Shown here: one piece after another, positions 4,143 to 44,360 of the stretch
How the letters are laid out: every line of letters starts with the position of its first letter
Numbering within the stretch: the first letter of the stretch is position 1
From: Candidatus Aenigmatarchaeota archaeon
GTDB taxonomy: Archaea > Aenigmatarchaeota > Aenigmatarchaeia > CG10238-14 > SpSt-28
Length of the DNA stretch: 64,000 bases
Direction of reading: 5' to 3'
NCBI GenBank assembly: GCA_038997165.1
Contig: JAWBAK010000002.1
Location: 3,083-67,082, forward strand
Notes under the pieces: model-generated
Told to the model about the DNA's origin: nothing
What the model saw: the letters and a program-made list of their open reading frames with translations, nothing else
The model's database searches: none
Position numbers and translations under genes: made by a program

Positions 4143-4158
4143 AATTTATATTTTTTAA

Positions 4159-4914
4159 ATGAAAAGTTATAATGAAAAGGTTATTATTATAAATGAAATT
4201 AAAAATCCAAAGGTTAGTGTAATAATACCAACTTATAATGAAGAAAAATATATAGAAGATACATTACTTTCTATTAAATATCAAAGATTTAATTATCCAT
4301 ACGAAATTATTGTTAGCGATTCTAATAGTAAAGATAGAACAATAGAAATTGCCAAAAAGTATGCAGATAAAATATTAATAACTAAAAAAAGAGGTATATC
4401 AGTAGGAAGAAATTTGGGAGCAAAATATGCAAAAGGAAATATTTTAATTTTTGTAGATGCAGATACTATATTATTACCAAATACTTTAAAAGAAGTTTAT
4501 AAAGTTATAAAGAAAAAAGGAATATCTTTAGTTTTTGTACCTTTTTTATCGAGAGAATATTCACCAATTTCAAATTTCTACTTTTCATTCTCTTTTCATT
4601 ACGTAAAATTTCTTTATATAGTAAGAAAAATTGCACACATTCCTGGATTTTTTATGGCTTGTAAAAGAGAAGATTTTTTTAAAGTTGGTGGATTTAATGA
4701 AAAATTGAAGGTATTAGAGGATTTTGATCTTTCAGAAAAATTATCTAAAATAGGAAAAGTTTGTTTTGTAGAAAATACATATGTTTTAACTTCTTCTAGA
4801 AGAATTAAAAAATGGGGAACTAAGGCAATACCAAAATATTTAGCAACTTACTTTAATTATTTAATTTTTAAAAATGATAAAATTGGAAAAATTTTTTGGA
4901 AACCTATTAGATAA
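4159..4914 (+). CDS. family 2 glycosyltransferase
   Basis: 'VSVIIPTYNEEKYI...YEIIVSDSNSKDRT...FVDADT' GT-A fold with DxD. Confidence 0.7.
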   Translation: MKSYNEKVIIINEIKNPKVSVIIPTYNEEKYIEDTLLSIKYQRFNYPYEIIVSDSNSKDRTIEIAKKYADKILITKKRGISVGRNLGAKYAKGNILIFVDADTILLPNTLKEVYKVIKKKGISLVFVPFLSREYSPISNFYFSFSFHYVKFLYIVRKIAHIPGFFMACKREDFFKVGGFNEKLKVLEDFDLSEKLSKIGKVCFVENTYVLTSSRRIKKWGTKAIPKYLATYFNYLIFKNDKIGKIFWKPIR

Positions 4915-8045: not shown

Positions 8046-8187
8046 CCCCCGGTAGCTCAGCGGTGGAGCGCCCGGCTGTAGATCTTTGCTAAATAAGCAA
8101 AGGGAGCAGTCGGCGCTCCCACACGGTTTAATGATAAGATGATTAACAGAAACCGGGAGGGCGTGGGTTCAAATCCCACCCGGGGGA
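8046..8187 (+). tRNA. tRNA-Tyr (anticodon GTA) with ~70-nt intron at canonical 37/38 position
   Basis: Acceptor cccccgg/ccggggg, D-arm gctc/gagc, anticodon stem cccgg...ccggg with loop ctGTAg interrupted by ~70 nt (approx 8082-8151), T-arm gtggg-ttcaaat-cccac, discriminator A. Exons sum to ~72 nt. Confidence 0.75.
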
Positions 8188-22384: not shown

Positions 22385-22546
22385 TTAAATTATAAATCTT
22401 AATATTAAAATTAAAATACCAATAAGAACTGAAATAATTATAACTTGCTCAATTTTCAATTTAATTTTAGATTCTGGTTCTTCTTCTAAATGAATTAAAC
22501 CTCCATATCCAGCAGGCATCAAATATTTTTTGGCTTTCTTCACCAT
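22385..22546 (-). pseudogene. secG: Sec61-beta/SecG-like ORF disrupted by an apparent -1 frameshift
   Basis: Frame A gives 'MVKKAKKYLMPAGYGV*'. The adjacent frame continues '...LIHLEEEPESKIKLKIEQVIIISVLIGILILILRFII*'. Joined, these resemble the archaeal Sec61-beta C-terminal TM region ('GLIRY.EE...IK..P..V' pattern). Confidence 0.25.
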
Positions 22547-23849
22547 AATAAAATTAAGAGAATATCTTTATATGGAAATAGTAAAAAATTATTATTCTAA
22601 TGAAAAGATATTAGAATTTTTAGTAGAGTTTGCAAAAGATAGAGAAGTTGTTGCCGTATATAAAGATGGAAAATATGGAAAGAGACCAGATATATTACAA
22701 TATCCAGCAGATATTATTTCAAAAGTAGAAGAAGGTGCTATTGCCTTTCATTGTACAGCAGAAAAATGGAAAAACCCAATGCAATTAAGAGCAGGAATGA
22801 TAAAAAAAGATTACGATGAATTAAGATTATCATGGGACTTAGTCATAGATATAGATATTAAAGATTTTGAAATAGCAAAATTAGCTACAAAGGTAATAGT
22901 GGAATTTTTAAAATCATATCAAATAAAAAATTTATTAGTTAAATTTACTGGCGGAGATAGTTTTCATATAATTATCCCTTCTCAAAGTTTTCCAGAAAAT
23001 TTTAATAAATCTCCAATTTCGTTACAATATGAAGAATTGAGTAGAAAAATTATAGAATTTATTAAACAATCTACAGAAGAAGAACTAAGAAATCTTATTA
23101 TTGAATTTTTTAATCCTAAGGAGCTATCTCAAAAACTTAATAAATCTTTGGATGAACTTTTTGAAAATAATGTTTTAAAACCATTTAAATTTATAAATAT
23201 AGATGTTTTTGGAGTTAGACATTTATTTAGAATGCCATATTCTTTACATGAAAAAACTTTATTAGTTAGTCTACCAATAAATCCAAAAGAAATAATGAGT
23301 TTTAAAAAAAGTGATGCACATCCAGAAAAAGTTATATTTGATGAAAAATTAGTTAGATTTGAATATAAAAACGATGCAATTTATTTATTAATAGAAGCTA
23401 TAGAAAGAGTAAAAATAGAAGTAGAAAAAGAAATAGAAGAATTAAAAGAAAAAGTTGAAGTTGGAAAAAAAAGAAAAATTCCTTTTGAATATTTTCCACC
23501 ATGCATAAAAACAATTCTTAACGGTTTAGAAGATGGAAGAAATAGAAGCATCTTTGTATTAATAACTTTTTTAAGAAATGTAGGTTATTCTTGGGAAGAA
23601 ATAGAAAAAATATTGCACGAATGGAATGAAAAAAATAGACCTCCATTAAGAGAAGGAATAATAAGAACTCAATTTAGATGGCATGTGAGACAAGAAAGAA
23701 ATTTATTAAGTCCTAATTGTGATCATCCAGTTTTCTATAAAGATTATGGCGTCTGTAAGCCCGATGAATTTTGTAAGGAAATAAAAAATCCCTTATCTTA
23801 TGCTTTAAAAAAATTCTTAAAAGATAAAAAAATTAAAAAAGAAGAATAA
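22530..23849 (+). CDS. priS: DNA primase small catalytic subunit PriS (AEP) with C-terminal 4-Cys PriL-CTD-like extension
   Basis: AEP motifs 'WDLVIDIDIKD' (DxD) and 'FTGGDSFHIIIP' (sGxRGYH-like). C-terminal ~120 aa contains C..(PPC), (PNC), (GVC), (EFC) and a helical 'LEDGRNRSIFVLITFLRNVGYSWEEI' segment. Confidence 0.55.
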   Translation: MAFFTIIKLREYLYMEIVKNYYSNEKILEFLVEFAKDREVVAVYKDGKYGKRPDILQYPADIISKVEEGAIAFHCTAEKWKNPMQLRAGMIKKDYDELRLSWDLVIDIDIKDFEIAKLATKVIVEFLKSYQIKNLLVKFTGGDSFHIIIPSQSFPENFNKSPISLQYEELSRKIIEFIKQSTEEELRNLIIEFFNPKELSQKLNKSLDELFENNVLKPFKFINIDVFGVRHLFRMPYSLHEKTLLVSLPINPKEIMSFKKSDAHPEKVIFDEKLVRFEYKNDAIYLLIEAIERVKIEVEKEIEELKEKVEVGKKRKIPFEYFPPCIKTILNGLEDGRNRSIFVLITFLRNVGYSWEEIEKILHEWNEKNRPPLREGIIRTQFRWHVRQERNLLSPNCDHPVFYKDYGVCKPDEFCKEIKNPLSYALKKFLKDKKIKKEE

Positions 23850-24662: not shown

Positions 24663-24945
24663 GGAAAAATTATTATTTATTCTTTTTGTTATTCTTATTT
24701 TTTTAATGTTTTTGCTAGATGCTTCAACTACAAAAGTTAACTTATGTAAAATTAATGGAAATGCTACGAATCAAACTTGTATTGTTCCTCCTATTCAAGT
24801 ATTTCCATACTTGAAAGAGTGAGTTCTAAGATTTAATTAACTACTTTTAGATAGTTAATAAGCCTAATATAATATATTTATTTAGATAAAAGGAAGATAA
24901 GAATATTAAAAAATCTATATATCCACTTGGCGCATTTTTATAAAT

Positions 24946-25251
24946 ATGGAGGAAAAAAGAGAAGAGAAAAAAAGGTCAGACGAATTAGAAAATGTGTTGA
25001 AAATACTAATTGTTTTAAAAAAACTAAACGGTTGGATATGGATTAGAGAAATAGCAAGAAGAGTAAATTTACACCATAAGACAGTTTCTCGCATTTTAGA
25101 TAAATATTTTAGACCATTCATAGAGGAGCAAAGAATTTTACCTTTTAGAGCTAGACTAGTGAGATTAAAAGATAATATTGATGAAGAAAAATTTATAGCT
25201 TTTTGGAAAATAAAAAAGTTGCAGGAAATATATGAAAAAAGATTTAAATAA
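24946..25251 (+). CDS. winged-helix/HTH DNA-binding protein, hypothetical regulator
   Basis: 'IREIARRVNLHHKTVSRILDKY' HTH-like segment. Confidence 0.4.
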   Translation: MEEKREEKKRSDELENVLKILIVLKKLNGWIWIREIARRVNLHHKTVSRILDKYFRPFIEEQRILPFRARLVRLKDNIDEEKFIAFWKIKKLQEIYEKRFK

Positions 25252-25253
25252 TT

Positions 25254-25817
25254 ATGAGTTTAATTGAGAAGTTTAAAAAGTTTTTTCTTAGAAAGAAAAG
25301 TTCCCTAGAAGCTCTTCAACAAAGCGACGAAACTCTAGAAAAAAAGACAAATATAGAAGAAAATATTTTAGAAAGAAATAATGAATTAGGTTTGATAGAT
25401 GAAAAATTCTTATATGGATATATTTTAAAAACTCTAAAATCTATTGAAGAAAGTTTAAAGAGAATAGAGTACAACATGGTAACAAAAGATTGGGCAGCTT
25501 TAAATTTATCAGAAAAGAAGGACATTGAAAATTTGTTAAACAAATTAGACGAAAAAATAGAGAACATAAAATTTATTTTACCATCTGCTTCAAGCGCTTT
25601 AAGCAGATCGAGCAGATCAAGTGAAATTATTAAGAAAGCCGTTGAAATAATAAGGGAAAGAAAAGAAATAAGTTATGAGGATTTAGCTAGGGAATTAGGA
25701 ATTTCAAATAGTTATTTGAGAGCAATAGCTAGTTTGATAGAGATGAATAATCCAAATATAAAAAGAAATATAAGAGATAAGAAAGGATATTTTATATACT
25801 TTGAAAAAATAGATTAG
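25254..25817 (+). CDS. hypothetical protein with C-terminal HTH domain; contains in-frame copy of the local palindromic repeat
   Basis: C-terminal 'ISYEDLARELGISNSYLRAIASLIE' HTH. The linker 'SASSALSRSSRSSE' is encoded by gcttcaagcgctttaagcagatcgagcagatcaag, which is related to the downstream intergenic palindromes. Confidence 0.4.
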   Translation: MSLIEKFKKFFLRKKSSLEALQQSDETLEKKTNIEENILERNNELGLIDEKFLYGYILKTLKSIEESLKRIEYNMVTKDWAALNLSEKKDIENLLNKLDEKIENIKFILPSASSALSRSSRSSEIIKKAVEIIRERKEISYEDLARELGISNSYLRAIASLIEMNNPNIKRNIRDKKGYFIYFEKID

Positions 25818-25835
25818 TAAAATACTTTTAGAATT

Positions 25836-26090
25836 GCTTAAGCGCTTAAGCAGTTCAAGCATGTTGACTAGTTACTTTTAAAAATTTAAAAATTAATATA
25901 TGGTTCGTAAGCCTACGATATTATCTAAATTAATCATGAAATTCTTTAATTTATAATTAAATGTTTTAATTCTTCAAATAGAAATGCTTTAACTGCTTGA
26001 AGCGCTTGAAGCGCTTATAAGCATAAGCAGCAAAAGAAATTTTGAAATATTTCTTCTGCTTAAGCGCTTAAGCAGATCAAGCAGTTAATA
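25836..26090. repeat. cluster of palindromic elements: two perfect 16-bp palindromes GCTTAAGCGCTTAAGC (25836-25851, 26058-26073), each followed by CAG(T/A)TCAAGCA...TTGAC, plus a composite variant (25995-26030)
   Basis: Read directly. Each element is its own reverse complement. A related copy lies in-frame inside the CDS at 25587-25621. Confidence 0.8.
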
Positions 26091-26166
26091 TATTGACAAA
26101 ATTAAATATAATATCACTAAAAAATAAAATATTTTATTTCTAAATGATAATTATATAACTTTTAGA

Positions 26167-26412
26167 AATTCTCACATTTTATATTATACTTTCATTTATA
26201 TTTTATAGTTAGTTTTATATCGAGAACTATCTCACATTTATTTTAATATTTGTAAAAGCTCTTTTTAAACAATTTAGAAGAATTATCTCTCACGTTTATA
26301 ATGAGAAACTAAACAAATTTAAAATTTAGATTTTTAAGTTCTAAATAGTATTAAACAAATTTTATTATTCTATAGTGGCAAACTATCTTTAGTCTTCTCT
26401 CACATTTTACAG
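26167..26412. repeat. iteron-like motif (a)T(T/A)TCTCACATTT(T)A x4 in direct orientation (starts ~26173, 26232, 26291, 26399), first three with exact 59-bp spacing, plus one inverted copy at 26808-26826
   Basis: Motif occurrences read directly. Only the ~10-12 bp core is conserved; flanks are not. Confidence 0.6.
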
Positions 26413-27253
26413 AAAAATAACTAGTAACTATTTTTAAATAACTATTATTAAACAAATTACTTATTCATAGATAGTACTAGAAAAGTCAATTTTTTATCAT
26501 TATTTATGAATTTAAAACATAAAGTAAAAAATTATATACTCAATTATATATAATTTTTTGTATAAATTATTAAAAGGTACTAAATAATTTACTTAAAAAA
26601 TAGTGAAAATATTATAAAAAACAGCATTCCATTATTATTATTCTTCTATAGATTTATTTAAATTATTTTTAATTTTTTTATATGTATAAACTTTTTATAT
26701 TTTAAACTTAACTTTAAATCTCTTTAAATATAGCTTTATCGTAAAAATATACCTTTAAAAATTTATAGCTGGCTCTGTAGACCAGTTATAAATTTTTAGA
26801 ATTTAAAAAAATGTGAGAGTTTTTAATTTATTTATTTACTTAATAGTAATTGTTAATAGATTTAAAGAATAAATAAAAAATATTCTGAAAATTAGTGAAC
26901 AAACTTTTTTCTAATATTTGTTAAAATGTTTATTATCCAGATGGCGCATCTATAAGATTCGAGAATTTTATTTTTTATGTCTTTTGTTTTTTCGAAAATA
27001 ATAAATATCTTAAAAGATAAAAGATTATAACTATACAAAACAAAAATATATGCTTATTTCTAAGAAGGAACTTAATAAAAAATTGAAATTAAAAATTTCA
27101 AAGTACAAAAATCAGAAATTATATTGCAAACTATCCTTTTTATAAGAATTGCGATATAAAAGTAAAAAATATTACTAATACTTAAATGTCATATTGGTAA
27201 GAGTGAAAAATTAAAAAAAGAAATATATGAAAGATATTTGGTACTTCTTTCTA

Positions 27254-28069
27254 CTAGTATCTATAGTTTTGATAAATCTGTTTAACTCTATTTTCTAGTT
27301 CATGCACCAAATCTTTTACTGTTCTAGAAGAGAGTAATACTTTTTCTATCTTTTTAAATTCTTTATTTATATCATATGATTTTTCTATACACTCTAAAAT
27401 ATCTTTTACAATATCAATAGAGGGTATGTTTTTTGCATTTAAGTTTTCTGATATTTTTATTGTACCTAACCAAGCATATATTTCACTTAAATTTCTGAAA
27501 TTCTCTGCTTTCTCTTGAATGCTTCTAAAGTGTAAAATAAAGCTTATAAAATTCAAAATAATAGTAATGATTGTAAAAATTGAATATGTTTCTTTACCAT
27601 TTATTATTTCTTTAAATGTTTGTACAAGGTTGTTTAAACTATTTTCATAATTTTTCAAAGCGTTTTTAATTTCGTTTGATGCTAATGAATTCAAAATATA
27701 CTTTGCGTGCATTAGTTCGTGAGGTAATGTTTCAACATCTTTACCATCGATCTTTACATAATCCTTTATTATAAGAATAATTGATCCTTCTTTATATAAT
27801 AGTGGGATTGTTATACCACCCAATTGTATAGAGTTATAAATTAATTCTGATATTATTAGATTTGCTCTATAAACTTCTGTATTTTTAGTAACGTTCTCAT
27901 CTAGATCAATACCTTTACTAGCAAGTTTATTTACGGCATTTTTTACTTCCTCTTTTGAAACTCTCTCAACCAAACCTATTTTTTCTGCTTTTTCAAATAG
28001 ATCTTCTATTAAATCTTTATTTTCTTTTCTTATATGGTTTGCATGTATTGTAGGTATATTATCATTCAT
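27254..28069 (-). CDS. HExxH-motif membrane-associated protein, hypothetical metallopeptidase
   Basis: 'ETLPHELMHAKYILN' followed by a TM segment 'YSIFTIITIILNFISFILHF'. Confidence 0.3.
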   Translation of the reverse strand: MNDNIPTIHANHIRKENKDLIEDLFEKAEKIGLVERVSKEEVKNAVNKLASKGIDLDENVTKNTEVYRANLIISELIYNSIQLGGITIPLLYKEGSIILIIKDYVKIDGKDVETLPHELMHAKYILNSLASNEIKNALKNYENSLNNLVQTFKEIINGKETYSIFTIITIILNFISFILHFRSIQEKAENFRNLSEIYAWLGTIKISENLNAKNIPSIDIVKDILECIEKSYDINKEFKKIEKVLLSSRTVKDLVHELENRVKQIYQNYRY

Positions 28070-28184: not shown

Positions 28185-28310
28185 ATGGAACACGCTTCAA
28201 TTAAAACTGCTATTTTTATTGGTATTGCAATTTTAATAATTTTATTTTTCATAATAATAGGTATTTACTATTTTAAAATTTTATCAACGCAAGTAGCTAT
28301 TACCCCATAA
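28185..28310 (+). CDS. tiny single-pass membrane protein 1 of 7 (41 aa)
   Basis: Hand translation gives MEHASIKTAIFIGIAILIILFFIIIGIYYFKILSTQVAITP. It is the first of seven tightly packed same-strand mini-ORFs. Confidence 0.3.
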   Translation: MEHASIKTAIFIGIAILIILFFIIIGIYYFKILSTQVAITP

Positions 28311-28312
28311 AA

Positions 28313-28489
28313 ATGCCTATAGAAATATCAACAGAATTGCTTTATATATTAATTTTTTTCTTGATAATTGTAGCAGTAATATTAACTTTTATTTTTTCTG
28401 GTTTCGATATCAATAGAATGCAAGAAAGTATTTCAAGTTTTTGGGATAGTGTAGATAGATTTGCTAAGAAAATATTTGGAGAAAAATAA
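28313..28489 (+). CDS. tiny single-pass membrane protein 2 of 7 (58 aa)
   Basis: MPIEISTELLYILIFFLIIVAVILTFIFSGFDINRMQESISSFWDSVDRFAKKIFGEK. Confidence 0.35.
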   Translation: MPIEISTELLYILIFFLIIVAVILTFIFSGFDINRMQESISSFWDSVDRFAKKIFGEK

Positions 28490-28491
28490 TT

Positions 28492-28677
28492 ATGGAAGTA
28501 AATTTTTTGATCCTAATAATTCTAGGTATTATAATTTTTTCAATTATTTTAATTGTAATATTTTCTATGATTTGGCCTTCGAAGTTTTCTACATTTTTAA
28601 AAGAAGCATGTTTATTAACAGTTGGAAAATTTTTTGCACAACCATATATATGTGAAGCTTTTAGAGTAGCAGAATGA
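28492..28677 (+). CDS. tiny single-pass membrane protein 3 of 7 (61 aa), CxnC tail
   Basis: TM helix, then 'EACLLTVGKFFAQPYICEA'. Paralogous to protein 4 ('EFCKITIGNIPFIGEGVCET'). Confidence 0.4.
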   Translation: MEVNFLILIILGIIIFSIILIVIFSMIWPSKFSTFLKEACLLTVGKFFAQPYICEAFRVAE

Positions 28678-28865
28678 TTCCGATAAGAACTCTTATAATA
28701 ATTTTTTTAATAATTATTGCAATTATATTTTTAATTTCGATTATCTTTGCATTTTTTAAGGGTGGAGGAGTAGCTCAAGTTTTTTATGAATTTTGCAAAA
28801 TAACTATTGGCAATATTCCATTTATTGGAGAGGGTGTTTGCGAAACTTTAATAAAAGAGATATAA
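28674..28865 (+). CDS. tiny single-pass membrane protein 4 of 7 (63 aa), CxnC tail
   Basis: Overlaps the previous stop (ATGA). TM helix + 'FFKGGGVAQVFYEFCKITIGNIPFIGEGVCETL'. Confidence 0.4.
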   Translation: MIPIRTLIIIFLIIIAIIFLISIIFAFFKGGGVAQVFYEFCKITIGNIPFIGEGVCETLIKEI

Positions 28866-28876
28866 AAAAATAATTT

Positions 28877-29038
28877 ATGGAGCAAACGATTTGGATAATA
28901 ATTCTTATAGTTATTGCAATTCTTTCGTTTATTGTAATATTGAGCATAATATCTTTAGCAAGAGAAGGTGGAATGAGAAGTTTAGGAGATTTGTTTAATT
29001 TATCTAAATTTTTGGAAATTGTTGGAATAAAGAAATGA
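28877..29038 (+). CDS. tiny single-pass membrane protein 5 of 7 (53 aa)
   Basis: MEQTIWIIILIVIAILSFIVILSIISLAREGGMRSLGDLFNLSKFLEIVGIKK. The GG motif after the TM matches protein 4. Confidence 0.35.
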   Translation: MEQTIWIIILIVIAILSFIVILSIISLAREGGMRSLGDLFNLSKFLEIVGIKK

Positions 29039-29187
29039 TAGAGGATGAATTATGGATAGTTTTAGGAATTATTTTATTAATAATAGTTGGAATTTTAATT
29101 TATCTAGCTATAACTAATCCAAAATTTCAAGAATTGATAAAGAATATGATATGGAATCTCAAAATTCCAAAACCTTGGAAAAAATAA
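29035..29187 (+). CDS. tiny single-pass membrane protein 6 of 7 (50 aa)
   Basis: MIEDELWIVLGIILLIIVGILIYLAITNPKFQELIKNMIWNLKIPKPWKK. Start overlaps the previous stop (ATGA). Confidence 0.35.
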   Translation: MIEDELWIVLGIILLIIVGILIYLAITNPKFQELIKNMIWNLKIPKPWKK

Positions 29188-29188
29188 T

Positions 29189-29314
29189 ATGCAAATACCA
29201 ATTAAAATAGTAATTATTATAATAATTTTAATAATTTTAATTACTTTTGCAATCTTTTTTGCAACTTTTTTAAAATCTTCTATTGCTAATATTTTATCTC
29301 AAATATTTGGTTAA
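29189..29314 (+). CDS. tiny single-pass membrane protein 7 of 7 (41 aa)
   Basis: MQIPIKIVIIIIILIILITFAIFFATFLKSSIANILSQIFG. Confidence 0.3.
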   Translation: MQIPIKIVIIIIILIILITFAIFFATFLKSSIANILSQIFG

Positions 29315-31305
29315 ACTTGAACTATTGTTTCTATCATTGGAGTTAATATTAGTGAACTAAAGAGAACTGTTAATATATATAATATTAGTGATATTATCAA
29401 TGTTTTCGAAAGAAAAGAAAGAAAATTATATCTTTCTAATCCACTTTCTAAACCGACAATTAATAAACTTGAAATTATTATCATTTCAACCAAATAAATA
29501 CCTAATGAAAAAGTTATAGATCCAAAAGAAATTGAACTTACTGTAGATGCAGAAATAAATGGAATACCAGTTAAAGGTAAAGCTTCTGTTGATTCCTGAG
29601 TTGGAAGTTCTCCAATACTAAAGAATACTTTAATAATTAGAGATAATAGAATAATTACTAATGAAATTCCAGTTCCAATTATAATTGGCATTAAGAATGT
29701 TATTATAAATTTTAGATTATTTACGTTATCACTTATTAATTCTTCAATCTTTGCTTGAAGTTTAAAAAGGTTAGATAAATATTCAGAAATTATTATCATA
29801 GTATCTCCAGCAAATCTATATCCTTTTTTATAACTTTCGATTATAATTTCAAAAGAATTTTTTATAATACTTGATGGATATATTTTTATTATTTTTTCTA
29901 TTGATTCTTTTAAATTTCCACTATAGGATAATATTGATAACAATTTTTCAAATAATTTTCCAATTTCAAATTTTTTATATCTTTCAATTCCTTTATTAAT
30001 TGCAATCTCTAAAGGATTTCCAGCTCTTAAATAATAACCTGTTTGATACAATACTGTTGGAAATTCGCTTTCTATTTTTTCAATAATTTTTCTTTTTAAT
30101 AAAATATTTCTTAATGCAAAAATTAAAATTAGTGAGATTGGAACAAACAATAAAAATAATGATGAAATTGCAAGAAAAACTAATGTAAAATTATCTCTTA
30201 ATAATTCCTCACACTCTTCTTTACTTAATGTCAAATCTTTTGGTTTTGTTTTAAATTTTGTATTTGCCCATTCTACACATTTTTCAAAATTATAATTTAG
30301 TGAAATAAAATTTGGAAGAGTTAAAGAGGAAAGAATTAATGATATTAAAATTCCAACAAAAATTAAATTAATTTTAAAGTTAGAAAATTTTATTTCTAAA
30401 GGATTTTCTATAAGAAGAAAGGAAATTGTTAATGGTCTAGAAGTTATTAAAGTTATTATTACTAGAAATAAAATTATTGGTAAAATTACATTGAAAACTA
30501 TTACTAAAGTTGTGAAAGAAAAAATTTGAGGGAAAAAAATAGAAAATAGTGGTAAAATAGTTAAAGAAAGTAAAGGCAAAATTACACCTAATCCTAAAAT
30601 AATTGTTGATGGTAATTTTAAACTTCTCGCATATTTTTCCATTCTTTGAAAATTTTCTTCATGCATTACTCTTATCGCTTCTTTTATTAAATTTTCTGAA
30701 GAATATGGATTTTCACTATATGCTATCAATAATTTTAATGCTTCGCAAAATTCTTTCGCTTCTTTATACCATCTTTCGATTATTTCATTTAAACCTTCTT
30801 TAATTGTAGTTTCTCCAACTAAAAATTTAGCTAAAATTCTTTTAAAATCTTTTCCAATTTCACCACTTAAATTACTCGCAACTAAAACAACAGCTCTTTC
30901 TAAATTTGGAACTTGTTTTAAAGAAATACTCATATATATAATTGCATGCATCATTTCGCTAGAGGCAAAATTTCTAATTAGTTTAGCTTTAAGAAATGGA
31001 TAATAATATATTAAAAATGAAATTAAGGATAATAATATAAAAAAAATAAAAGATATTGAGAATCCTAATGAAAAAGCTAATATTGCAATTCCTATTATTC
31101 CAAAAAGAAAAATTAGAATTGCTGCAGAAAAATTTGAAGCTGGAGGTATTCTTAATCTACAAAATTTATTAACTTCATTATATAACTCTTCTTCTTCTTT
31201 TGGAATTTTAATTTTTATTATTTGAAAACTAAAATTACAAAGTAATTCGTAAAAAGAAAGTTTTTTGGATTTTTTATATTCTTCAATAATTTGGTTTACA
31301 TCCAT
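29311..31305 (-). CDS. TadC/FlaJ-like (T2SS-F family) polytopic membrane platform protein candidate
   Basis: 664 aa. Two ~130-170 aa helical cytoplasmic segments alternate with TM bundles. These are 'NLERAVVLVASNLSGEIGKDF...' and '...TVLYQTGYYLRAGNPLEIAINKG...'. The second carries the GspF/TadC-like 'L..aG.pl..Al' motif. The assignment is by pattern only. Confidence 0.4.
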   Translation of the reverse strand: MDVNQIIEEYKKSKKLSFYELLCNFSFQIIKIKIPKEEEELYNEVNKFCRLRIPPASNFSAAILIFLFGIIGIAILAFSLGFSISFIFFILLSLISFLIYYYPFLKAKLIRNFASSEMMHAIIYMSISLKQVPNLERAVVLVASNLSGEIGKDFKRILAKFLVGETTIKEGLNEIIERWYKEAKEFCEALKLLIAYSENPYSSENLIKEAIRVMHEENFQRMEKYARSLKLPSTIILGLGVILPLLSLTILPLFSIFFPQIFSFTTLVIVFNVILPIILFLVIITLITSRPLTISFLLIENPLEIKFSNFKINLIFVGILISLILSSLTLPNFISLNYNFEKCVEWANTKFKTKPKDLTLSKEECEELLRDNFTLVFLAISSLFLLFVPISLILIFALRNILLKRKIIEKIESEFPTVLYQTGYYLRAGNPLEIAINKGIERYKKFEIGKLFEKLLSILSYSGNLKESIEKIIKIYPSSIIKNSFEIIIESYKKGYRFAGDTMIIISEYLSNLFKLQAKIEELISDNVNNLKFIITFLMPIIIGTGISLVIILLSLIIKVFFSIGELPTQESTEALPLTGIPFISASTVSSISFGSITFSLGIYLVEMIIISSLLIVGLESGLERYNFLSFLSKTLIISLILYILTVLFSSLILTPMIETIVQV

Positions 31306-37376: not shown

Positions 37377-38285
37377 ATGAAAGATTTAGAAAGCAAATTG
37401 TATCAAAATTCTCAATATAAAAAATTAGAAGAAAAATTAAGAAAAGAATTAGATGAAAGATATCCTATGTTAAAAGAAAGTGAAATTAAAGAAATTCAAA
37501 CTGTTTTTTCTTTTATACCCCATGCAACAGAAAAATATATTGTATTATCAAAAATTAATATTGCAGATATTATAAATTTTAGCTATGCTACATATCTTAT
37601 AAATTACATTAATAGCTATCCAAATACATTATCATCTTTTTCTGCTCTTATTAACTTAGCTTTTATTCTATCTTTGTATACATTTTTAATTTTTTATAGA
37701 AAAAATTTAAAAATACATGAAATGATTCACTCATATAGATTAAGATATTTTCATTTTTATCAAAAAATTAAAGGTAAAGAAAAAGATAGCTCTTTCATTT
37801 CTAACATTCGAGAGAAATTAAAAGAAAATGTAATTAATTCTGATAACAAAATTCTTTCTTTCTTTTCCAGAGAATTTTTGTTAATATTATCTATTCCATC
37901 TTTTATAAAATATTTTATAAAAAGTTTTGATAAAAAGAAATTTTATTTTTGGGAAGAAAAAATTACTGAGTATGAAAAGGAAAGAATAACTGGTAAAAAA
38001 TCTTTTCTTCTTTCCAATCGAGAAAGAAAATTTTTAGAATTTTTAGAATCTTTAAGAACAGATAGTTATATACCAATTGAAGAAAAACAAATAGATAAAA
38101 TAAAAAATTCAAATTTAGATGAAAATTTAAAGAATTTAATTTTAAATGAAATAGAAGAAATAAAAAGCAATAAAGAATTTAAATTTTTTATTGAAAATAT
38201 TCCTGTTTTTATTCCAAAATACGAATTAATAGATAAACTTTATGAAGAATGGAAAAAATCTTCTAATCTTTATCAAAAAAACTAA
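37377..38285 (+). CDS. hypothetical membrane protein with intramembrane HExxH (HEMIH)
   Basis: 'LAFILSLYTFLIFYRKNLKIHEMIHSY'. Otherwise no recognisable family. Confidence 0.3.
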   Translation: MKDLESKLYQNSQYKKLEEKLRKELDERYPMLKESEIKEIQTVFSFIPHATEKYIVLSKINIADIINFSYATYLINYINSYPNTLSSFSALINLAFILSLYTFLIFYRKNLKIHEMIHSYRLRYFHFYQKIKGKEKDSSFISNIREKLKENVINSDNKILSFFSREFLLILSIPSFIKYFIKSFDKKKFYFWEEKITEYEKERITGKKSFLLSNRERKFLEFLESLRTDSYIPIEEKQIDKIKNSNLDENLKNLILNEIEEIKSNKEFKFFIENIPVFIPKYELIDKLYEEWKKSSNLYQKN

Positions 38286-38707
38286 TAAAAATTTTTCTTA
38301 TAATATCTATAATTAATCCAAAAAATAATAAGTAAAAGAGAAGTTCAAAGTTAATTGTTATTTTTATTATATCAAAATTTAAAAAATTTTTATATTCAAA
38401 TTCTATTTTTCCAAAATTTAAAACAAAAACTATAAAAATTAAAATAAAAATAGAATAAATTATAGAAAAAACTTTTGCCATTTTATTTTCTAATAAAATT
38501 GAAAGAAAAGAAGAAAACGAAATTGTTAATCCTAAAAAAAAAAAAGAAGATAAATATTTGTATTATAGGTTTCGATAATAAAGCTACAAAAATTAAGATT
38601 AAAAAATTTGCAATTGATAATTTCATAGTTTCCTAAAATTATTATTAAAAAAGGTAGTGTAAAAAACAAAAAGTTTAGTAAAAATATAAAAAAAGCTTTT
38701 ACTAATT

Positions 38708-39223
38708 TCATATTTTTAAAAATTGAGAAAATTTTGTTTGAATAATAAATGATATTTTTAAAACATCTTCAATATTTATAACTATAAAACCTTTAAGTTT
38801 TGAATTATTAATTTCTTCAATTATTTTATTTTTTATTTCGTTAGGATCTTTATAAGTATCTATTAATTTAGTTGCATAGTTCTTAATTTCATCTTCTAAT
38901 AATGTTTTATTTAAAAAATTTATAAAAACACTTTTTTCTTTATTAGCTTCTATATCTGTTTCTAATTTAATAAAACTAATAGTTTTATTAAAAATAAATA
39001 TATTGAAATCAAAAGTTAAGTTTTTAATTTTTAGAGGGCTTGGATTAAAAATTGTAATTTCTCGGATTTCTATTTCAGATTTTTGTGTTTTTTCAAAAAT
39101 TTTAGAGTTAGAAATAAAAAAGTTAATTAAAGTAAAAATCGAAAGAAAAAATAATATCAAAGAAATTAAAAACAACAAAATTGAAAATATAAATAATAAT
39201 TTATTAATTAACTTTATTTTCAT
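38708..39223 (-). CDS. N-anchored secreted protein, hypothetical
   Basis: Signal/TM 'LLFIFSILLFLISLILFFLSIFTLINFF'. Confidence 0.3.
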   Translation of the reverse strand: MKIKLINKLLFIFSILLFLISLILFFLSIFTLINFFISNSKIFEKTQKSEIEIREITIFNPSPLKIKNLTFDFNIFIFNKTISFIKLETDIEANKEKSVFINFLNKTLLEDEIKNYATKLIDTYKDPNEIKNKIIEEINNSKLKGFIVINIEDVLKISFIIQTKFSQFLKI

Positions 39224-39609: not shown

Positions 39610-40761
39610 TTATTTAAGTACTTCAATTCCAAGCAAACTACTTGTTTCTCTTGTTAAAGCTCTTTCAGTTGAAATTCTTCCTAAAATATATGGAGACTTT
39701 ACTCCAGTAACTATTGTAATAACTTGAATTCTTCCTTCGTATTCTGGCATAATTCTTGCTCCTACAAAAACTGTTGCACTAGGATCTAATTGAGAGTATA
39801 CATGATGCATTATTTGATGCACTTCTTCTAATTTCAAATCTTCTCCACCAGTTACATGCACTAATGCACCAGCAGCTCCTGTATAATCAACATCTATTAA
39901 TGGATTTTGCAATGCTTTCATAACAGCATCTCTTGCTCTATCGCTCGAAGAGCTTTCAGCTATTCCTAGTGCTGCAACACCACCACCTGTACTCATTACA
40001 CTTCTTACATCTGCATAATCTAAGTTAATTAAACTAGGTAACGTTATTGTTTCGGTAATTCCTTTTATCATATTAGCAACTAATTCATCTGCAACTGCAA
40101 AAGCTTGTTGCAATGTTAAATTTCCAGCATATTTTAGTAATCTATCGTTTTCAATAACAATAACAGTATCAGCATGTTCTCTTAATCTAGCTAATCCTTC
40201 TTCAGCTTTGAATCTTCTAGATCCTTCTGCACTAAATGGCATTTCAACAACTCCAATAACTAATGCTCCCATAGATTTTGCTATCTCTGCAACTACTGGA
40301 GCAGCTCCAGTACCAGTACCTTTTCCTAATCCAGCTAATACAAAAACCATGTCTGCTCCTTCTATAGCTTCTTTAATTTCGTTTCTACTTTCTTCAGCAG
40401 CTTTTCTTCCAACTTCAGGAATTCCACCACAACCTAAACCCCTTGTTAATTCTCTTCCTATTAAAATTCTTTTATCTGCTTTTGTTACAGCTAAATGTTT
40501 TGCATCAGTATTTAATGCTACAGTGGTAGCTCCATAAACTCCTAATTCATGCAATCTTGTAATTGTATTGCAACCAGCACCCCCAACACCTACTGCAACA
40601 ATTTTTGCTTTTTTAACATCTACACCAAATTGTTCTTTTGCTAATTGAAAATAATCTACATCTTTTCTAATTACTCCACTAGAAACTTTTGCAGCTAATC
40701 TTAAGTTTGGATTTTCTTCTTCAAGTGCTCTTCTTAGTGCAGATTTTATTATTGTCTCCAT
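39610..40761 (-). CDS. ftsZ: cell division GTPase FtsZ
   Basis: 'AVGVGGAGCNTITRL', tubulin signature 'GLGKGTGTGAAPVVAEIAK', T7 loop region. Confidence 0.9.
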   Translation of the reverse strand: METIIKSALRRALEEENPNLRLAAKVSSGVIRKDVDYFQLAKEQFGVDVKKAKIVAVGVGGAGCNTITRLHELGVYGATTVALNTDAKHLAVTKADKRILIGRELTRGLGCGGIPEVGRKAAEESRNEIKEAIEGADMVFVLAGLGKGTGTGAAPVVAEIAKSMGALVIGVVEMPFSAEGSRRFKAEEGLARLREHADTVIVIENDRLLKYAGNLTLQQAFAVADELVANMIKGITETITLPSLINLDYADVRSVMSTGGGVAALGIAESSSSDRARDAVMKALQNPLIDVDYTGAAGALVHVTGGEDLKLEEVHQIMHHVYSQLDPSATVFVGARIMPEYEGRIQVITIVTGVKSPYILGRISTERALTRETSSLLGIEVLK

Positions 40762-40933
40762 TGTTTTATCGAAATCTATATATTTATGTTCTACGATTAT
40801 CTATTTAGAAGCTTCAGAGCCTAAAAGGTGCCATTATCTCCTAAAGAATTTCGACCCCCCTATAAAATTTCTCTTTGTTTATAGGATTTATTATTTTCTA
40901 TAAAAAATTGTATAAATGCAATTTAAATTTTCG

Positions 40934-41554
40934 CTATTTTAATTCGATAAAAGAAACGTAACAAATAAACTTTTTTTCAATTCTTTTACCTATTTTTTTA
41001 ATTTTATAAAGTTTTTGATTAAAATTTTCGATTATAGGAACTAGCAAGATACCATTATCTTTTAGTTGATTAACCCAAAATGGTGAAATTTCTTTTGTAG
41101 CGGCGCTTACAGCAATTTTATCAAATGGGCTATATTCTTCTAAGCCGTATTTTCCATCTCTTAGAAAAATCTTACATTTATCTATATAATTGGTTTTTTC
41201 CAAATTTCTTTTTCCAAATTCAAAAACATCTTTATCTATTTCTATTCCATAAACTTCTCTTTTTGTAATTTCATAGGCATAAGCTAATAAAATTCCTGAA
41301 CCAAATCCTATTTCTAAAAATTTATCGTCTTTTTTTAATTCTAATTCTTCCAAATATATTGCATGCATGTGTGGAGCAGAAATCGTGGCATCTTTAACAA
41401 TAGGCAATGGCATATCTAAATATGCTTTATCTTTTAAATCTTCTCTAACAAAATCTCTTCTATCAACTTTGAGAAACGCTTCTTTAACTTCTTTTCTTTT
41501 AATAATTTTTTCTTTTTCTAATTTTTCAACCAACGCTTCTAAACTATAATGCAT
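40934..41554 (-). CDS. pcm: protein-L-isoaspartate O-methyltransferase
   Basis: 'VDRRDFV...YLDMPLPI...ATISAPHMHA...LEIGFGSGI' PIMT motifs. Ends at 41554; the aIF5B ORF begins at 41558. Confidence 0.8.
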   Translation of the reverse strand: MHYSLEALVEKLEKEKIIKRKEVKEAFLKVDRRDFVREDLKDKAYLDMPLPIVKDATISAPHMHAIYLEELELKKDDKFLEIGFGSGILLAYAYEITKREVYGIEIDKDVFEFGKRNLEKTNYIDKCKIFLRDGKYGLEEYSPFDKIAVSAATKEISPFWVNQLKDNGILLVPIIENFNQKLYKIKKIGKRIEKKFICYVSFIELK

Positions 41555-41557
41555 AAA

Positions 41558-43288
41558 TTAAACAAGTTTCCATTCTTTTAATAATTCTTTTTCTTCTTCG
41601 CTTAAATAATCAAAATATTTTTTAAGTATTTCTAAATCTTTTTGAGAAATATCAGAAACTAAAATATCATCTTCTTCGAAAGTTCTTCCTATAATAGCGT
41701 TTTCTATACTAATTGCAACTTTTTCATTTTTAGTAGCAAATTCAATACTTCTATTTTCTTTTTGTATATCGTTAACAATTCCTACTTCTTTTCCATCTTC
41801 TCTTTTTAATTTAACACCTTTAAATAATCTACCTTTTAATATTTCAACACCAAAAATCGCAGGATTACTTCTTCTAAATATAAAACCTTTTAACACTTTA
41901 ATAATTACAGGTCTATTAATTTTCGATAATTCATATTTTGCTTCATTTCTCTTTTTTTCTTCTAAATAATTTTTTATTTCTTCAACAATTCTATAAATTA
42001 CATTTCCTTCAATAATTTTTACATTTTTTTGATTTAATGTTTCTCTTTCTTCTTCGCTTATTTGAACATTAAATAAAACTAAAATTTTATATTTTTCGTC
42101 TCTAATTAAATCTAAATCAATAATATCTTCTTTCTTTAATTTCCCAACACCAGTTTTTTTAATTGGTATTTTCTCTTTTTCTAACATATTAATTATAGCT
42201 TCTAAACTTCCAAGAGTATCTGCTTTTACTATTATTCCATCTAATTCTTTTTTAAAAATTATGTTTTCGAAACTCATTTTTAATTCATTTTTTAATTTTT
42301 CAATTTCTTTTTCATCCTTTATAACTCTAAATTCACTACCAGCAATTACATTTTCTAAATTATCAGCAAAAATTCTTATACCGGCAGAGGCTACTATTTC
42401 GTTAACATACTCAAATTCTTTTTCATATCTAATGTCTTTTAATTCTTTAGGAACCATTATGAATTTTATTTTTGTTATTATTGGTTCATGTGAAGCAATT
42501 ACTATTGAATCTCCTTTTTTTAATTTTCCATCATAAAGAATGCAATCAGCAACAATGCCTAAACCTTTTTGTTCTCTTAATTCTAAGATTATTCCTTTTG
42601 TTTCTTGAGAAATGTATAGTCTGTCTTTAAGAAATATTTGAGATAATCCACTAATAATTAGTAATAGTTCAGCTAACCCTTCTTTTGTTTTAGCAGAAAC
42701 AGGCACTATTGGTATTTGTGATTTGAAATCGGTAATTCTATCGAATCTTTCACTAATAAAATTAAACTCATATAGTTTTGCAACTATTTCGTATAATTTT
42801 TTATCTAATTCGAAAATCGTTTGTTGAGATTGAAATAGTACACTTTCTAAAAAAGATAAAGAATTAGAATTTTTCCAATTTGGCAATTTATCAATTTTAT
42901 TTAAAGCAATTAAAAAAGGAATTTTATAATTCTTTAAAATTTCTAAGCATTCTATGGTTTGTTCTTCGATACCTTCAATTATATCAATAACTAAAATTGC
43001 AATATCAGAAATACTTCCACCTCTTTTTCTTAAGTGAGAAAATGCTGCGTGACCTGGAGTGTCAATTAATAATATTCCATTGAATTTTATTTCAAATTTA
43101 AATTTTTTTAATAAATCTCCACAAATTTTTTCTATTACATTTTTTGGAATGAAAGTTGAAGAAATGTGTTGAGTAATTTGTCCTGGTTCTTTTAAAGCAA
43201 CTAAAGAATTTCTTATAGCGTCAGCTAAAGAAGTTTTGCCATGATCAACATGACCCATTAATGTTACTATTGGTGCTCTTAGCTCCAT
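41558..43288 (-). CDS. infB: translation initiation factor aIF5B (IF2 homolog)
   Basis: 'RAPIVTLMGHVDHGKTSLADAIR', 'IDTPGHAAF', 'NKIDK' GTPase motifs plus C-terminal beta-barrel domains. Confidence 0.85.
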   Translation of the reverse strand: MELRAPIVTLMGHVDHGKTSLADAIRNSLVALKEPGQITQHISSTFIPKNVIEKICGDLLKKFKFEIKFNGILLIDTPGHAAFSHLRKRGGSISDIAILVIDIIEGIEEQTIECLEILKNYKIPFLIALNKIDKLPNWKNSNSLSFLESVLFQSQQTIFELDKKLYEIVAKLYEFNFISERFDRITDFKSQIPIVPVSAKTKEGLAELLLIISGLSQIFLKDRLYISQETKGIILELREQKGLGIVADCILYDGKLKKGDSIVIASHEPIITKIKFIMVPKELKDIRYEKEFEYVNEIVASAGIRIFADNLENVIAGSEFRVIKDEKEIEKLKNELKMSFENIIFKKELDGIIVKADTLGSLEAIINMLEKEKIPIKKTGVGKLKKEDIIDLDLIRDEKYKILVLFNVQISEEERETLNQKNVKIIEGNVIYRIVEEIKNYLEEKKRNEAKYELSKINRPVIIKVLKGFIFRRSNPAIFGVEILKGRLFKGVKLKREDGKEVGIVNDIQKENRSIEFATKNEKVAISIENAIIGRTFEEDDILVSDISQKDLEILKKYFDYLSEEEKELLKEWKLV

Positions 43289-43319
43289 AAACTTCCATAA
43301 GCAAAAGATTTATTTTAGA

Positions 43320-44360
43320 TTATAAAATAAGTTTTGCAACAAATTTACTTCCTTTTATTCCATCTACTCTTTTTATTTCTATTATATTTTTGTTTACTAA
43401 ATCTTTTAGTAAATAGTTAAACATTCTTCTTTTAATATTAAATTTTTTGTTTATTATTTCAAAAAGCTCTGTAGTTGTCATTTCTTTTTCTTTTAATAAA
43501 TTAATTATTTCTTTTTGTCTTTCATCATAAATTAACTTAATTTTTTCATCCAAAGTATCAATTTTTTTCTTTTCAAAATTTTTGATTACTTCTTTAATTA
43601 TTTCAACACTTAATTTATTTTCATTTTTATCTAATAAAATTTCTAGTGCTTTTTTTAAAACTTTCAAAATTATTCTTACATCACTATTGTAATTATAAGC
43701 TAGGTTTGCAATTAGAGTTATTGCAGCTTTATCATAATTATTTTGAAAAATTAATTTTACTCTCTCTTCAGCAATTGTTTTAAGCTGTTCAAAAGTATAT
43801 TGTTTAAATTCTAATTCATCAAAATTTAATGAACTTAAAACTCTTTGATCTAAATTTAAAATAAAATCTTTATTATTTGAAATTAAAATCAAATAAGGAT
43901 AATAATTATATAAAAAGGTCATTCTTGAAAAAATATAAAGAATTTCATTTATATCTTTAACTTTATCTATTTCATCTATACATATTACAATCTTTAAATT
44001 TGAATTTTTTAAATAATTGACAATTCTTTCTAATATTTCTTCTTTTGAAACACCCCTTATTTCTAAAATTTTTAATTCTTCTGCGATTTTAGATAATAAT
44101 AGCGATGAAGTATTATAAACGAAAGCATTAAGATAAACATATTTAACTCCTAATATTTGAAAATTTTTAAAAACATATTTAACGCTAGCTGTTTTTCCAA
44201 GACCACTACTTCCAAAAATTAAAAGATAAGTTGGTTTAAAATTTTTGGAATATTTTTCAATCTTATCTTTAATAAAGAGAATTTGAGATTCTCTAAATGG
44301 TAATTTTTCTGGGATATAATTTTCATCTAAAAAATCAAAGATATTTTCTACAGCGCTCAT
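43320..44360 (-). CDS. cdc6: Orc1/Cdc6 family replication initiator (short, 346 aa)
   Basis: Walker A 'GSSGLGKTAS', Walker B 'ICIDEIDK', C-terminal winged-helix-like segment. Confidence 0.7.
   Translation of the reverse strand: MSAVENIFDFLDENYIPEKLPFRESQILFIKDKIEKYSKNFKPTYLLIFGSSGLGKTASVKYVFKNFQILGVKYVYLNAFVYNTSSLLLSKIAEELKILEIRGVSKEEILERIVNYLKNSNLKIVICIDEIDKVKDINEILYIFSRMTFLYNYYPYLILISNNKDFILNLDQRVLSSLNFDELEFKQYTFEQLKTIAEERVKLIFQNNYDKAAITLIANLAYNYNSDVRIILKVLKKALEILLDKNENKLSVEIIKEVIKNFEKKKIDTLDEKIKLIYDERQKEIINLLKEKEMTTTELFEIINKKFNIKRRMFNYLLKDLVNKNIIEIKRVDGIKGSKFVAKLIL

Follow-up and report, generated by a model that had tools for sequence, protein, structure and literature searches.

What purpose is served by a gene-free stretch of 1.4 kb in a genome in which genes otherwise lie tightly packed? 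The question is raised by positions 25818-27253 (hereafter the island) of a 64-kb chromosome fragment (the window) from a member of the Aenigmatarchaeota, a phylum of the DPANN archaea. Short motifs of five classes, confined to the island, recur in the same order in related Aenigmatarchaeota, and the island is coupled, physically as well as evolutionarily, to the genes of two small putative helix-turn-helix (HTH) proteins, HTH1 and HTH2. Judged from these features, it would be neither a gene nor junk but a platform at the DNA level for a large protein-DNA complex. Its most likely role is that of a replication origin with dedicated winged-helix recognition proteins, to which a rough probability of 40% is assigned. 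All functional statements made here rest on architecture and comparative genomics. The components of the locus, in amino acids (aa), base pairs (bp) or nucleotides (nt), are as follows.

24914-24939, + strand: HTH1 promoter region, with the TATA-like CTATATAT (24914-22) followed by box B, CCACTTGGCGCA (24923-34), plus TTTTT
24946-25251, + strand: HTH1, a 101-aa winged-helix/HTH protein with sub-threshold Pfam HTH matches, forming a conserved pair with HTH2
25254-25817, + strand: HTH2, 187 aa, with a winged helix in its AlphaFold2 model
25585-25621: cluster 0, CTGCTTCAAGCGCTTTAAGCAGATCGAGCAGATCAAG, inside the HTH2 gene and encoding the disordered linker SASSALSRSSRS
25835-25861: cluster 1, TGCTTAAGCGCTTAAGCAGTTCAAGCA, holding a perfect 16-bp palindrome (25836-25851)
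25984-26037: cluster 2, a GCTT-n-AAGC run including 2.4 copies of GCTTGAAGC
26056-26085: cluster 3, CTGCTTAAGCGCTTAAGCAGATCAAGCAG, holding the second 16-bp palindrome (26058-26073)
26170-26179, + strand: iteron 1, TCTCACATTT, exact match
26230-26239, + strand: iteron 2, TCTCACATTT, exact match
26288-26297, + strand: iteron 3, the variant TCTCACGTTT with one mismatch (the sister genome L007 has the consensus TCTCACATTT here)
26398-26407, + strand: iteron 4, TCTCACATTT, exact match
26411-26765: AT-rich segment between the direct and inverted iterons, 355 bp, 86.8% AT against 75.8% in the window, with peaks of 90-93%
26531-26568: block P, TATAC(A)CTCnnTTATATATAATTTTTTGTATAA, near-invariant (columns 126-163 of alignment A2)
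26763-26791: palindrome H, TTATAGCTGGC-TCTGTAG-ACCAGTTATAA, 29 bp with 11-bp arms and a 7-bp spacer
26809-26818, - strand: inverted iteron (reading AAATGTGAGA on the + strand); its distance from the preceding palindrome H is fixed at 16-17 nt
26937-26952, + strand: box B', CCAGATGGCGCATCTA, repeating the HTH1-promoter box in the same direction and forming the right-hand limit of the conserved island
26961-27253: AT-rich tail of ~290 bp, present in the window only (alignment A2) and free of conserved motifs

The motifs stand out clearly against the composition of the window (GC ~24%). The iteron, with the logo aAwCT-CTCAC-ATTT (39 sites) and direct copies of the CTCTCACA type, occurs as exact TCTCACATTT four times in 64 kb against an expectation of 0.27; all four copies lie in the island, and none of 100 shuffled sequences reached this number. 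The palindrome GCTTAAGCGCTTAAGC is present at 25836-25851 and 26058-26073 and nowhere else in the window, against an expectation of 0.10 even with 3 mismatches allowed. An earlier note on this DNA had pointed out two perfect 16-bp palindromes and a composite palindrome cluster, both of which are real, the latter being the GCTT-n-AAGC run of cluster 2 (the clusters can also be written as GCTTAAGC palindromes). The same note had listed four direct iteron copies, three of them exactly 59 bp apart, and one inverted copy. Three exact direct copies and the inverted one stand, while the third is the variant TCTCACGTTT, the coordinates were off by 1-3 bp, and the actual spacings are 60, 58 and 110 bp. 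A spacing of ~58-60 bp is found only in the lineage of the window and in the relative L009 (36-172 bp in other relatives), and recurrence is limited to the ~10-16 nt motif, with unrelated sequence in between. A 59-bp tandem repeat was accordingly rejected, as Tandem Repeats Finder sees no such unit and the spacing is not conserved. The concern that the motifs are scattered AT-rich noise is answered by their near-complete confinement to the islands and by the conserved layout in relatives (see below). The core idea of the earlier note, that of specific protein-binding motifs, is thereby strongly supported; of the three roles it offered (origin, centromere-like site or regulatory region), an origin is so far not favoured over the other two by the checks it suggested.

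The surroundings of the island were also described correctly in that note. The flanking ORFs (open reading frames; 25254-25817 on the + strand and 27254-28069 on the - strand) are convergent, and the longest ORFs lying fully inside are of 34, 48 and 31 aa, so that the gap indeed holds none of 60 aa or more. Packing is tight, as ORFs of at least 80 aa cover ~88% of the window (summed ORF lengths), and the island is its largest gene-free stretch. No comparable repeats are present in the other large gaps, at 57797-58814 (~1 kb, the sole other gap of such size) and 38285-38708. A candidate hidden ORF (LLEALEAL...) through cluster 2 was discarded, since a stop codon lies just before the frame and a start codon is absent.

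The island is conserved among the relatives of the window (loci denoted by L-numbers). In this window clade, HTH1 homologues are 77-100% and HTH2 homologues 52-95% identical, and the full layout of the module is kept even where HTH2 is only 52-64% identical. Gene-free gaps follow the HTH1-HTH2 pair in L002 (1146 bp), L003 (1221 bp; grouped with L004), L006 (1337 bp) and L012 (1130 bp), while in L007 and L009 the same motifs follow the gene pair and both contigs end inside the island. The order of the modules is identical in six relatives, i.e., palindrome clusters, direct iterons, the AT-rich interval with block P, palindrome H with the inverted iteron, and box B'. Each relative carries three to four clusters of GCTT-n-AAGC palindromes and AAGCAG repeats, usually beginning at the HTH2 stop codon (which cluster 1 overlaps in most of them), with one more cluster inside the gene. 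These are followed by four to eight direct iterons, by an AT-rich interval of 330-410 bp and, in five of six islands, by the inverted copy 334-413 bp beyond the direct ones; L006 has no exact inverted CTCACA at that place, only the variant GTGAGAG after palindrome H. Overall identity between the islands of different species is 54-61%, and in the two closest genomes the spacers are altered by insertions and deletions while the motif blocks are kept. In 6.3 kb of islands from five species, CTCACATT occurs 21 times as against none in 106 kb of flanks, and CTGCTTAA 23 times as against four. A protein-based metagenome scan added one short contig.

Block P is a near-invariant 36-bp sequence which is partly palindromic (TTATAC...GTATAA) and has a TATA-like core. 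Palindrome H (consensus TTATARCTGGC-N7-GCCAGYTATAA) is present once per locus in all window-clade relatives, while a metagenome scan with it returned no matches. At L006 2883-2911, H corresponds to the L002 copy in reverse complement, from which it differs at one position after flipping and at four in direct reading, and the element may have been inverted in the L006 lineage. Beyond box B' the genes differ between genomes, and in the relatives these variable genes begin directly after it; the tail 26961-27253 is thus probably not part of the element, as far as the alignment goes. The right border was also observed to be an insertion hot spot with different genes in every relative; for example, comparison of L002 (11767-12499) with L012 (~8030) reveals a DUF218 gene and a 71-aa ORF inserted in L002 after box B' and before a PF0610-like gene. 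In the window, transcription into 26961-27253, antisense to the 271-aa gene, could start from the TATA-like TTTATTAT that immediately precedes box B'.

The connection of the island with the two genes is evident at the HTH1 promoter. This promoter stretch is invariant in six relatives, and with the HTH1 ATG at 24946, box B takes the operator position of a probably leaderless mRNA. Exactly two copies of the box (CCAnnTGGCGCA type), both on the + strand, are found per locus complete at both ends, and the 64-kb window has only two exact copies, one in the HTH1 promoter and the other at the right edge of the island (box B', consensus CCAnnTGGYGCA). Further, direct comparison of the sequences shows the 3' half of box B, TGGCGCATTTT, and the iteron, TCTCACATTTT, to agree at 8 of 11 positions. 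The location of box B between the TATA box and the HTH1 ATG, which is the usual position of archaeal repressor sites, suggests autoregulation. A gene for a PF0610-like winged-helix/Zn-ribbon regulator follows box B' at a distance of 38 nt in L012.

As regards the proteins, the earlier note had called both upstream genes HTH genes. A winged-helix domain is predicted in the second by AlphaFold2, while both HTH calls fall below the Pfam thresholds. The HTH2 model (mean predicted local distance difference test score, pLDDT, of 69; built on nine sequences) comprises, from the N- to the C-terminus, a low-confidence helix, a disordered stretch, a helical hairpin, a disordered linker rich in Ser/Ala/Arg (SASSALSRSS) and a confident winged helix. 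The N-terminus (MGxFDxLKKLFKRK) forms a conserved cationic amphipathic helix with a hydrophobic moment of 1.4-2.0, which might bind the membrane. Searches of Pfam, NCBIfam, PHROGs, PADLOC, PDB sequences and profiles, and Foldseek yielded only generic winged-helix/HTH matches for HTH1 and HTH2. As far as such comparisons reach, neither protein can be assigned to a characterised family, and the motifs have no counterpart in a described origin, centromere or RNA.

The palindrome motif extends into the HTH2 gene itself. The linker SASSALSRSS is encoded by the GCTTCAAGCGCTTTAAGCAG motif, which also fills the start of the island, and its codon usage is skewed accordingly. In six HTH2 genes, AGC is used for 20 of 43 linker Ser codons (background 10.8%) and GCT for all 12 Ala codons (background 39%); since these genes are phylogenetically related, the P values of the codon tests are indicative only. 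The bias towards AGC and GCT implies that the constraint on this region acts at the nucleotide level.

The association of island and gene pair is not restricted to the window clade. A profile search recovered 89 cluster representatives of the HTH2 family and a second search more than 100 clusters at 90% identity, several of which are labelled Aenigmatarchaeota. Six distant loci (L014 and L016-L020; ~25-37% identity) were read. In all of them, three to seven GTGAG iterons in one orientation (logo aAcT-CTCAC-Ttt, with the CTCTCAC core kept) are located in a gene-free stretch of 450-730 bp upstream of the HTH2 homologue. Each also has an HTH1 homologue on the opposite strand just downstream of the HTH2 homologue (27-45% identity in five of the six; the L014 copy was identified by eye). 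Three of the loci, L014, L016 and L017, were followed base by base, and in these an iteron adjoins the HTH1 start, while a lineage-specific short repeat again occupies the 5' coding part of HTH2 and reappears at or after its 3' end. It is represented by AAGCGCTT palindromes in L014 (6031-6129 and 6605-6627), by AATCGATT palindromes in L016 (6050-6093 and 7443-7485), and by the direct repeat AATCAATCA, with a 19-nt unit AATCAATCAATCAATCACA, in L017 (6015-6136 and 6644-6681); here the repeats encode a disordered N-terminal region. The half-site thus appears to change from AAGC to AATC between lineages. A box B stands beside an iteron in L014, and a P-like motif (ATATAT..AGAGTGT) lies upstream of the iterons in L014 and L017, while palindrome H is confined to the window clade. 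Because the gene pair and the iteron core co-occur across such distant Aenigmatarchaeota, the link between the island and both HTH genes is, on comparative grounds, much stronger than the earlier note could know.

Some further features of the family were observed at these loci. Seven members (P0021, P0028, P0039, P0048, P0063, P0068 and P0124) of the HTH2 family carry an extra C-terminal domain of ~120 aa with a D...E-L-K pattern and a weak XisH match, which is found as a separate ORF right after HTH2 in L014 (6698-7108) and may adopt a PD-(D/E)xK nuclease-like fold. In L017, a 42-aa zinc-ribbon ORF with a CxxC...CxxC pattern is situated between HTH2 and the HTH1 homologue (6740-6868, - strand), and similar sequences are present in L014 (~7170-7275, - strand) and L016 (~6700-6830, - strand). 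The window-clade relatives have the PF0610-like gene right of the island instead; tblastn of the zinc-ribbon and PF0610-like proteins against the window found no counterpart of either (best E 0.018 and 8.3). On one side, the neighbours of the module stay the same throughout a lineage; they are S19e/primase, Peptidase_M24/Rhomboid (with PolB some kb beyond) or an EF-2/S7/S12/NusA operon. The other flank is variable and harbours PIN, HEPN, restriction-modification (RM), integrase and MCM-like genes. On the variable side, L016 1-854, L017 1449-2375, L019 23-4787 and L014 1-4483 encode tyrosine recombinases, PIN toxins, an OLD-family nuclease, an Eco57I-type RM enzyme and a 452-aa MCM-domain protein, so that this flank looks like integrated mobile or defence DNA abutting the module.

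How might such a locus work? In the proposed scheme, HTH1 and/or HTH2 would bind box B and autoregulate their own operon, and HTH1 and/or HTH2 would also bind the island palindromes and the CTCTCACA iterons. The proposed task of the HTH pair is to mark the site and to recruit or assist Orc1/Cdc6 and MCM, which are encoded elsewhere. Direct iterons, an AT-rich stretch with an invariant block, and an inverted iteron together constitute the layout of an archaeal replicator (PMC4010727), and a chromosomal origin is therefore the most likely role. Autoregulation alone appears insufficient, since the iteron array of the window clade is upstream of no gene and is nevertheless kept together with P and H.

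Several features are shared with origins of the Orc1/Cdc6 type. The repeats lie on one side of the AT-rich stretch and the inverted copy on the other, in the window as in its relatives, and the island is a large intergenic region near replication genes, with the primase gene 2 kb away in the window clade and PolB 6.5-7 kb from the module in L018 and L019. Sulfolobus oriC1 contains an essential ucm motif inside its unwinding element (PMC12141716), and block P is placed likewise within the AT-rich interval. However, the island repeat (aAwCT-CTCAC-ATTT) is distinct from the dyad TTCCA..GGAA of the origin recognition box (ORB), for which a consensus with a TTCC..GAA dyad and clusters within a coding gene have been described (PMC1904270), the latter being a precedent for sites inside genes. 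Moreover, orc1/cdc6 is not adjacent, the neighbours of the island are small winged-helix proteins without an AAA+ domain, and a skew or orientation signature was not found. A functional parallel is offered by oriC3-WhiP of Sulfolobus, an origin with a non-Orc1 winged-helix initiator and no ORB (PMC4010727). Like it, the island lacks ORBs and is paired with an adjacent non-Orc1 winged-helix gene, a pairing that could be lineage-specific or captured. The likeness is functional only, as no similarity of HTH1 or HTH2 to Cdt1/WhiP was detected with Pfam, NCBIfam, PDB profiles or Foldseek; in addition, two proteins are involved here instead of one, with an amphipathic N-terminal helix and a helical hairpin in HTH2. 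Iteron plasmid replicons (RepA, pi, RepE) likewise have direct iterons beside an AT-rich region and an adjacent winged-helix gene, which here is putatively autoregulated via an iteron-related operator. Unlike these replicons, the island is chromosomal and archaeal, its spacing is irregular (36-172 bp as against tight arrays of ~22 bp), no Rep_3/WH1-WH2 homology was found for HTH1 or HTH2 in family searches, and no homologues are present in IMG/VR (protein or box B) or PLSDB. In phage lambda, the ori repeats within gene O encode a flexible linker of the O protein; the binding-type repeats inside the HTH2 coding sequence likewise encode a linker of HTH2.

Several results weigh against an origin. 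A skew switch at the island, which the earlier note had named as a check, was seen neither in the window nor on pooling 10 loci: coding-strand-corrected GC/AT skew in the window gained at most 4% in R2 at any breakpoint, and the pooled beta was -0.002 +/- 0.011. Many archaea lack skew altogether. Only 43% of the flanking coding bases (pooled, 10 loci) are directed away from the module, and in L016 and L020 an EF-2/S7/S12/RNA polymerase operon is directed towards it. Skew and orientation alike make a weak test on flanks of 6-37 kb, and their lack of signal does not amount to a negative; no replication-linked signal of origin activity was found in the skew and gene-orientation analyses as a whole. 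ORB or mini-ORB dyads (TCCA-n-TGGA, TTCCA..GGAA; e.g., TTCCAGTGGAACT) are absent from the island, with three isolated ones in the window, and no initiator ATPase gene adjoins the island. HTH1 and HTH2 have no detectable similarity to the winged-helix domain of Orc1/Cdc6, to Cdt1/WhiP or to plasmid Rep proteins. The iterons of the distant loci recur at -24, -48, -74, -88 and -110 from the HTH2 start codon, which is a promoter-operator-like arrangement. Finally, a closed genome of another DPANN phylum has its skew-defined origin beside cdc6 (PMC5905446).

In another view, the island serves transcription control alone. Here, the iterons, box B, P and H would be operators and promoters of an HTH1/HTH2 regulon, perhaps with a non-coding or antisense RNA or a long leader. 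Box B between the TATA box and the HTH1 ATG, the recurring distances of the three to seven one-orientation GTGAG iterons from the HTH2 start at all six distant loci (with one to two more just upstream of HTH1), the strong TATA-like core of block P and the position of box B' before the PF0610-like regulator gene of L012 all agree with it. Nevertheless, the array of the window clade is conserved although it follows HTH2 and precedes no gene (in the window, the flanking genes converge), control DNA of 1.1-1.4 kb would be extreme where ORFs of at least 80 aa take up ~88% of the sequence, and the leftmost iterons lack a consistent TATA box across species. Furthermore, conservation does not extend into the sequence past the candidate promoters, which thus gives no sign of a conserved RNA product. 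Regulation as the sole function is accordingly held to be doubtful. Somewhat more doubtful still is a centromere-like or anchoring site, at which an HTH2 dimer would bind the palindromes and/or iterons and tether the locus, possibly to the membrane via its N-terminal helix, for segregation or nucleoid organisation. The build of HTH2 (amphipathic N-terminal helix, disordered spacer, helical hairpin and winged helix) is tether-like, as in Noc, a DNA-membrane tether. The perfect 16-bp palindromes are parS-like in form, and putative binding palindromes lie in and around the HTH2 gene, just as parS lies within spo0J/parB. Iteron arrays over the promoter of the operon of the binding protein are typical of ParR-parC and TubR-tubC, TubR being a winged-helix protein, and the module shares such an overlap with its own operon promoter. 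Thus, 16-bp palindromes with iteron arrays, sites in or next to the gene of the binder, overlap of operator and centromere-type sites and a winged-helix binder like TubR all recall parS-ParB, ParR-parC, TubR-tubC and SegAB. Against this, genes for a partner NTPase (nucleoside triphosphatase) of the ParA, ParM, TubZ or SegA type are absent from all 12 neighbourhoods read, HTH1 and HTH2 have no ParB, ribbon-helix-helix (RHH) or SegB family matches, and in size the island exceeds known centromeres several times over, being also much more complex, with P and H as extra modules.

A structured RNA and a recombination site or mobile-element scar are improbable even when taken together. Hairpins at 25836-26085 or H could belong to one or more structured non-coding RNAs, and shuffled sequences fold far less well than the region 25820-26110, whichever strand is taken (z = -5.2 and -6.0); GC-rich patches in a genome of 24% GC also often mark RNA genes. 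The equal folding of both strands follows from the palindromes, and the z-scores were hence set aside. Rfam gave no family for 25400-27500 even at E up to 10, apart from spurious microRNA-hairpin matches; a scan of the window with Rfam 15 at gathering thresholds returned five tRNAs only, and ARAGORN and a C/D-box scan of the island yielded no RNA candidate. On the + strand, L006 has an A.C mismatch in place of a G.T pair of H, with the reverse on the - strand, so that the swap of its single asymmetric position leaves an RNA hairpin on neither strand. The L017 counterparts of the clusters are direct (AATC)n repeats instead of hairpins, and the remainder of the island is 80-87% AT, which is atypical for structured RNA. 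The swap in H, strand-symmetric folding and the direct repeats of L017 favour DNA sites, and an RNA is regarded as very unlikely. An equally slim chance is given to H as a site-specific recombination site (dif/att-like) and to the island as the scar or boundary of an integrated element carrying HTH1 and HTH2. H has the geometry of a recombinase core (11-bp arms, 7-bp spacer) and is flipped in L006, the two B boxes are direct repeats bracketing the whole unit, the right flank is a hot spot of insertion, and in L016 and L017 the module has tyrosine recombinase genes at a distance of 3.5-5 kb, with PIN, RM, OLD and MCM-like genes flanking other loci. On the other hand, H is absent from the distant loci, no integrase is found among the annotated genes near the window-clade islands, one flank consists of stable core genes in each lineage, and viral and plasmid collections hold no homologues. 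The archaeal dif consensus (WTKDSMTATAA-N6-TTATATSHMAA) is of 28 bp, with 11-bp arms, a 6-bp spacer and TATAA/TTATA abutting the spacer (PMC4640148). H was therefore rejected as dif, since its arms and spacer measure 11-7-11, the spacer is bordered by CTGGC/GCCAG, and TTATA is found at the outer ends. A mobile element or defence system was also dismissed, as IMG/VR, PLSDB, PHROGs and PADLOC gave no matches beyond generic winged-helix/HTH ones. The idea that the left half of the island is the decayed, inverted 5' end of an HTH2-like gene (suggested by the order of iterons then repeats, as at the distant loci) was abandoned as speculation, in the absence of an ORF remnant or conserved spacing.

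The wider gene context of the window adds a few observations. The closest public proteins to its products are named Candidatus Aenigmatarchaeota, and archaeal markers include ribosomal protein S19e, a fused PriS-PriL primase, Orc1/Cdc6, FtsZ, a thermosome subunit and an intron-containing tRNA. The Orc1/Cdc6 gene (43320-44360), for which the earlier note had stated that adjoining intergenic space is lacking, does have spacers of only 31 bp on both sides; it is located ~16-17 kb from the island, packed between aIF5B and a Trp/Tyr-tRNA synthetase gene. It belongs to a tight co-directional block (39610-44360, - strand) with aIF5B, protein-isoaspartate methyltransferase and FtsZ, and its product is short (346 aa) and without a Pfam Cdc6_C match, yet aligns to residues 11-361 of 1FNN. 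PriS and PriL Pfam domains are fused in one 439-aa ORF (22530-23849, + strand). The L012 counterpart (3578-4846) is called as two ORFs of 246 and 172 aa, either a real split or a frameshift error, while the L002 primase is fused although the L002 and L012 islands are ~95% identical. A 142-nt tRNA at 8046-8187 (+ strand) is detected by Rfam (56 bits) but not reported by ARAGORN; it presumably carries a long archaeal intron. Right of the island, seven back-to-back ORFs of 41-63 aa with single hydrophobic segments (28185-29314, + strand), one of which has a weak Flp-pilin-like match, adjoin a 664-aa T2SSF/FlaJ-like membrane protein (29311-31305, - strand). As the same array is also present in L003, it is probably a pilin gene cluster. 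Small neighbouring ORFs of the module were compared as well and are not homologous between lineages.

An origin may also be combined with a segregation role in a bolder, and rather doubtful, proposal. The locus would then be a phylum-specific replicator/centromere system which does not need an adjacent Orc1/Cdc6. The HTH pair would define the origin and/or segregation site, HTH2 would tether it, possibly to the membrane, and the sites in the HTH2 coding sequence would co-evolve with it (AAGC/GCTT to AATC/GATT). No origin or centromere has been experimentally defined in any DPANN archaeon, and a literature search found no paper describing an origin or centromere for Aenigmatarchaeota. With its defined short motifs and two small soluble proteins, the locus provides a precise and testable candidate. 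If the proposal holds, no such system for recognising an origin or centromere would have been described in DPANN archaea before, and a new class of archaeal replicator-binding proteins would be added. Should the island be an origin, it would be the second archaeal origin set by non-Orc1 winged-helix proteins, after WhiP-oriC3; should it be a centromere or tether, it would represent a motor-less system of a new type. Either way, the sites would be embedded in, and constrain, the coding sequence of their most probable binder.

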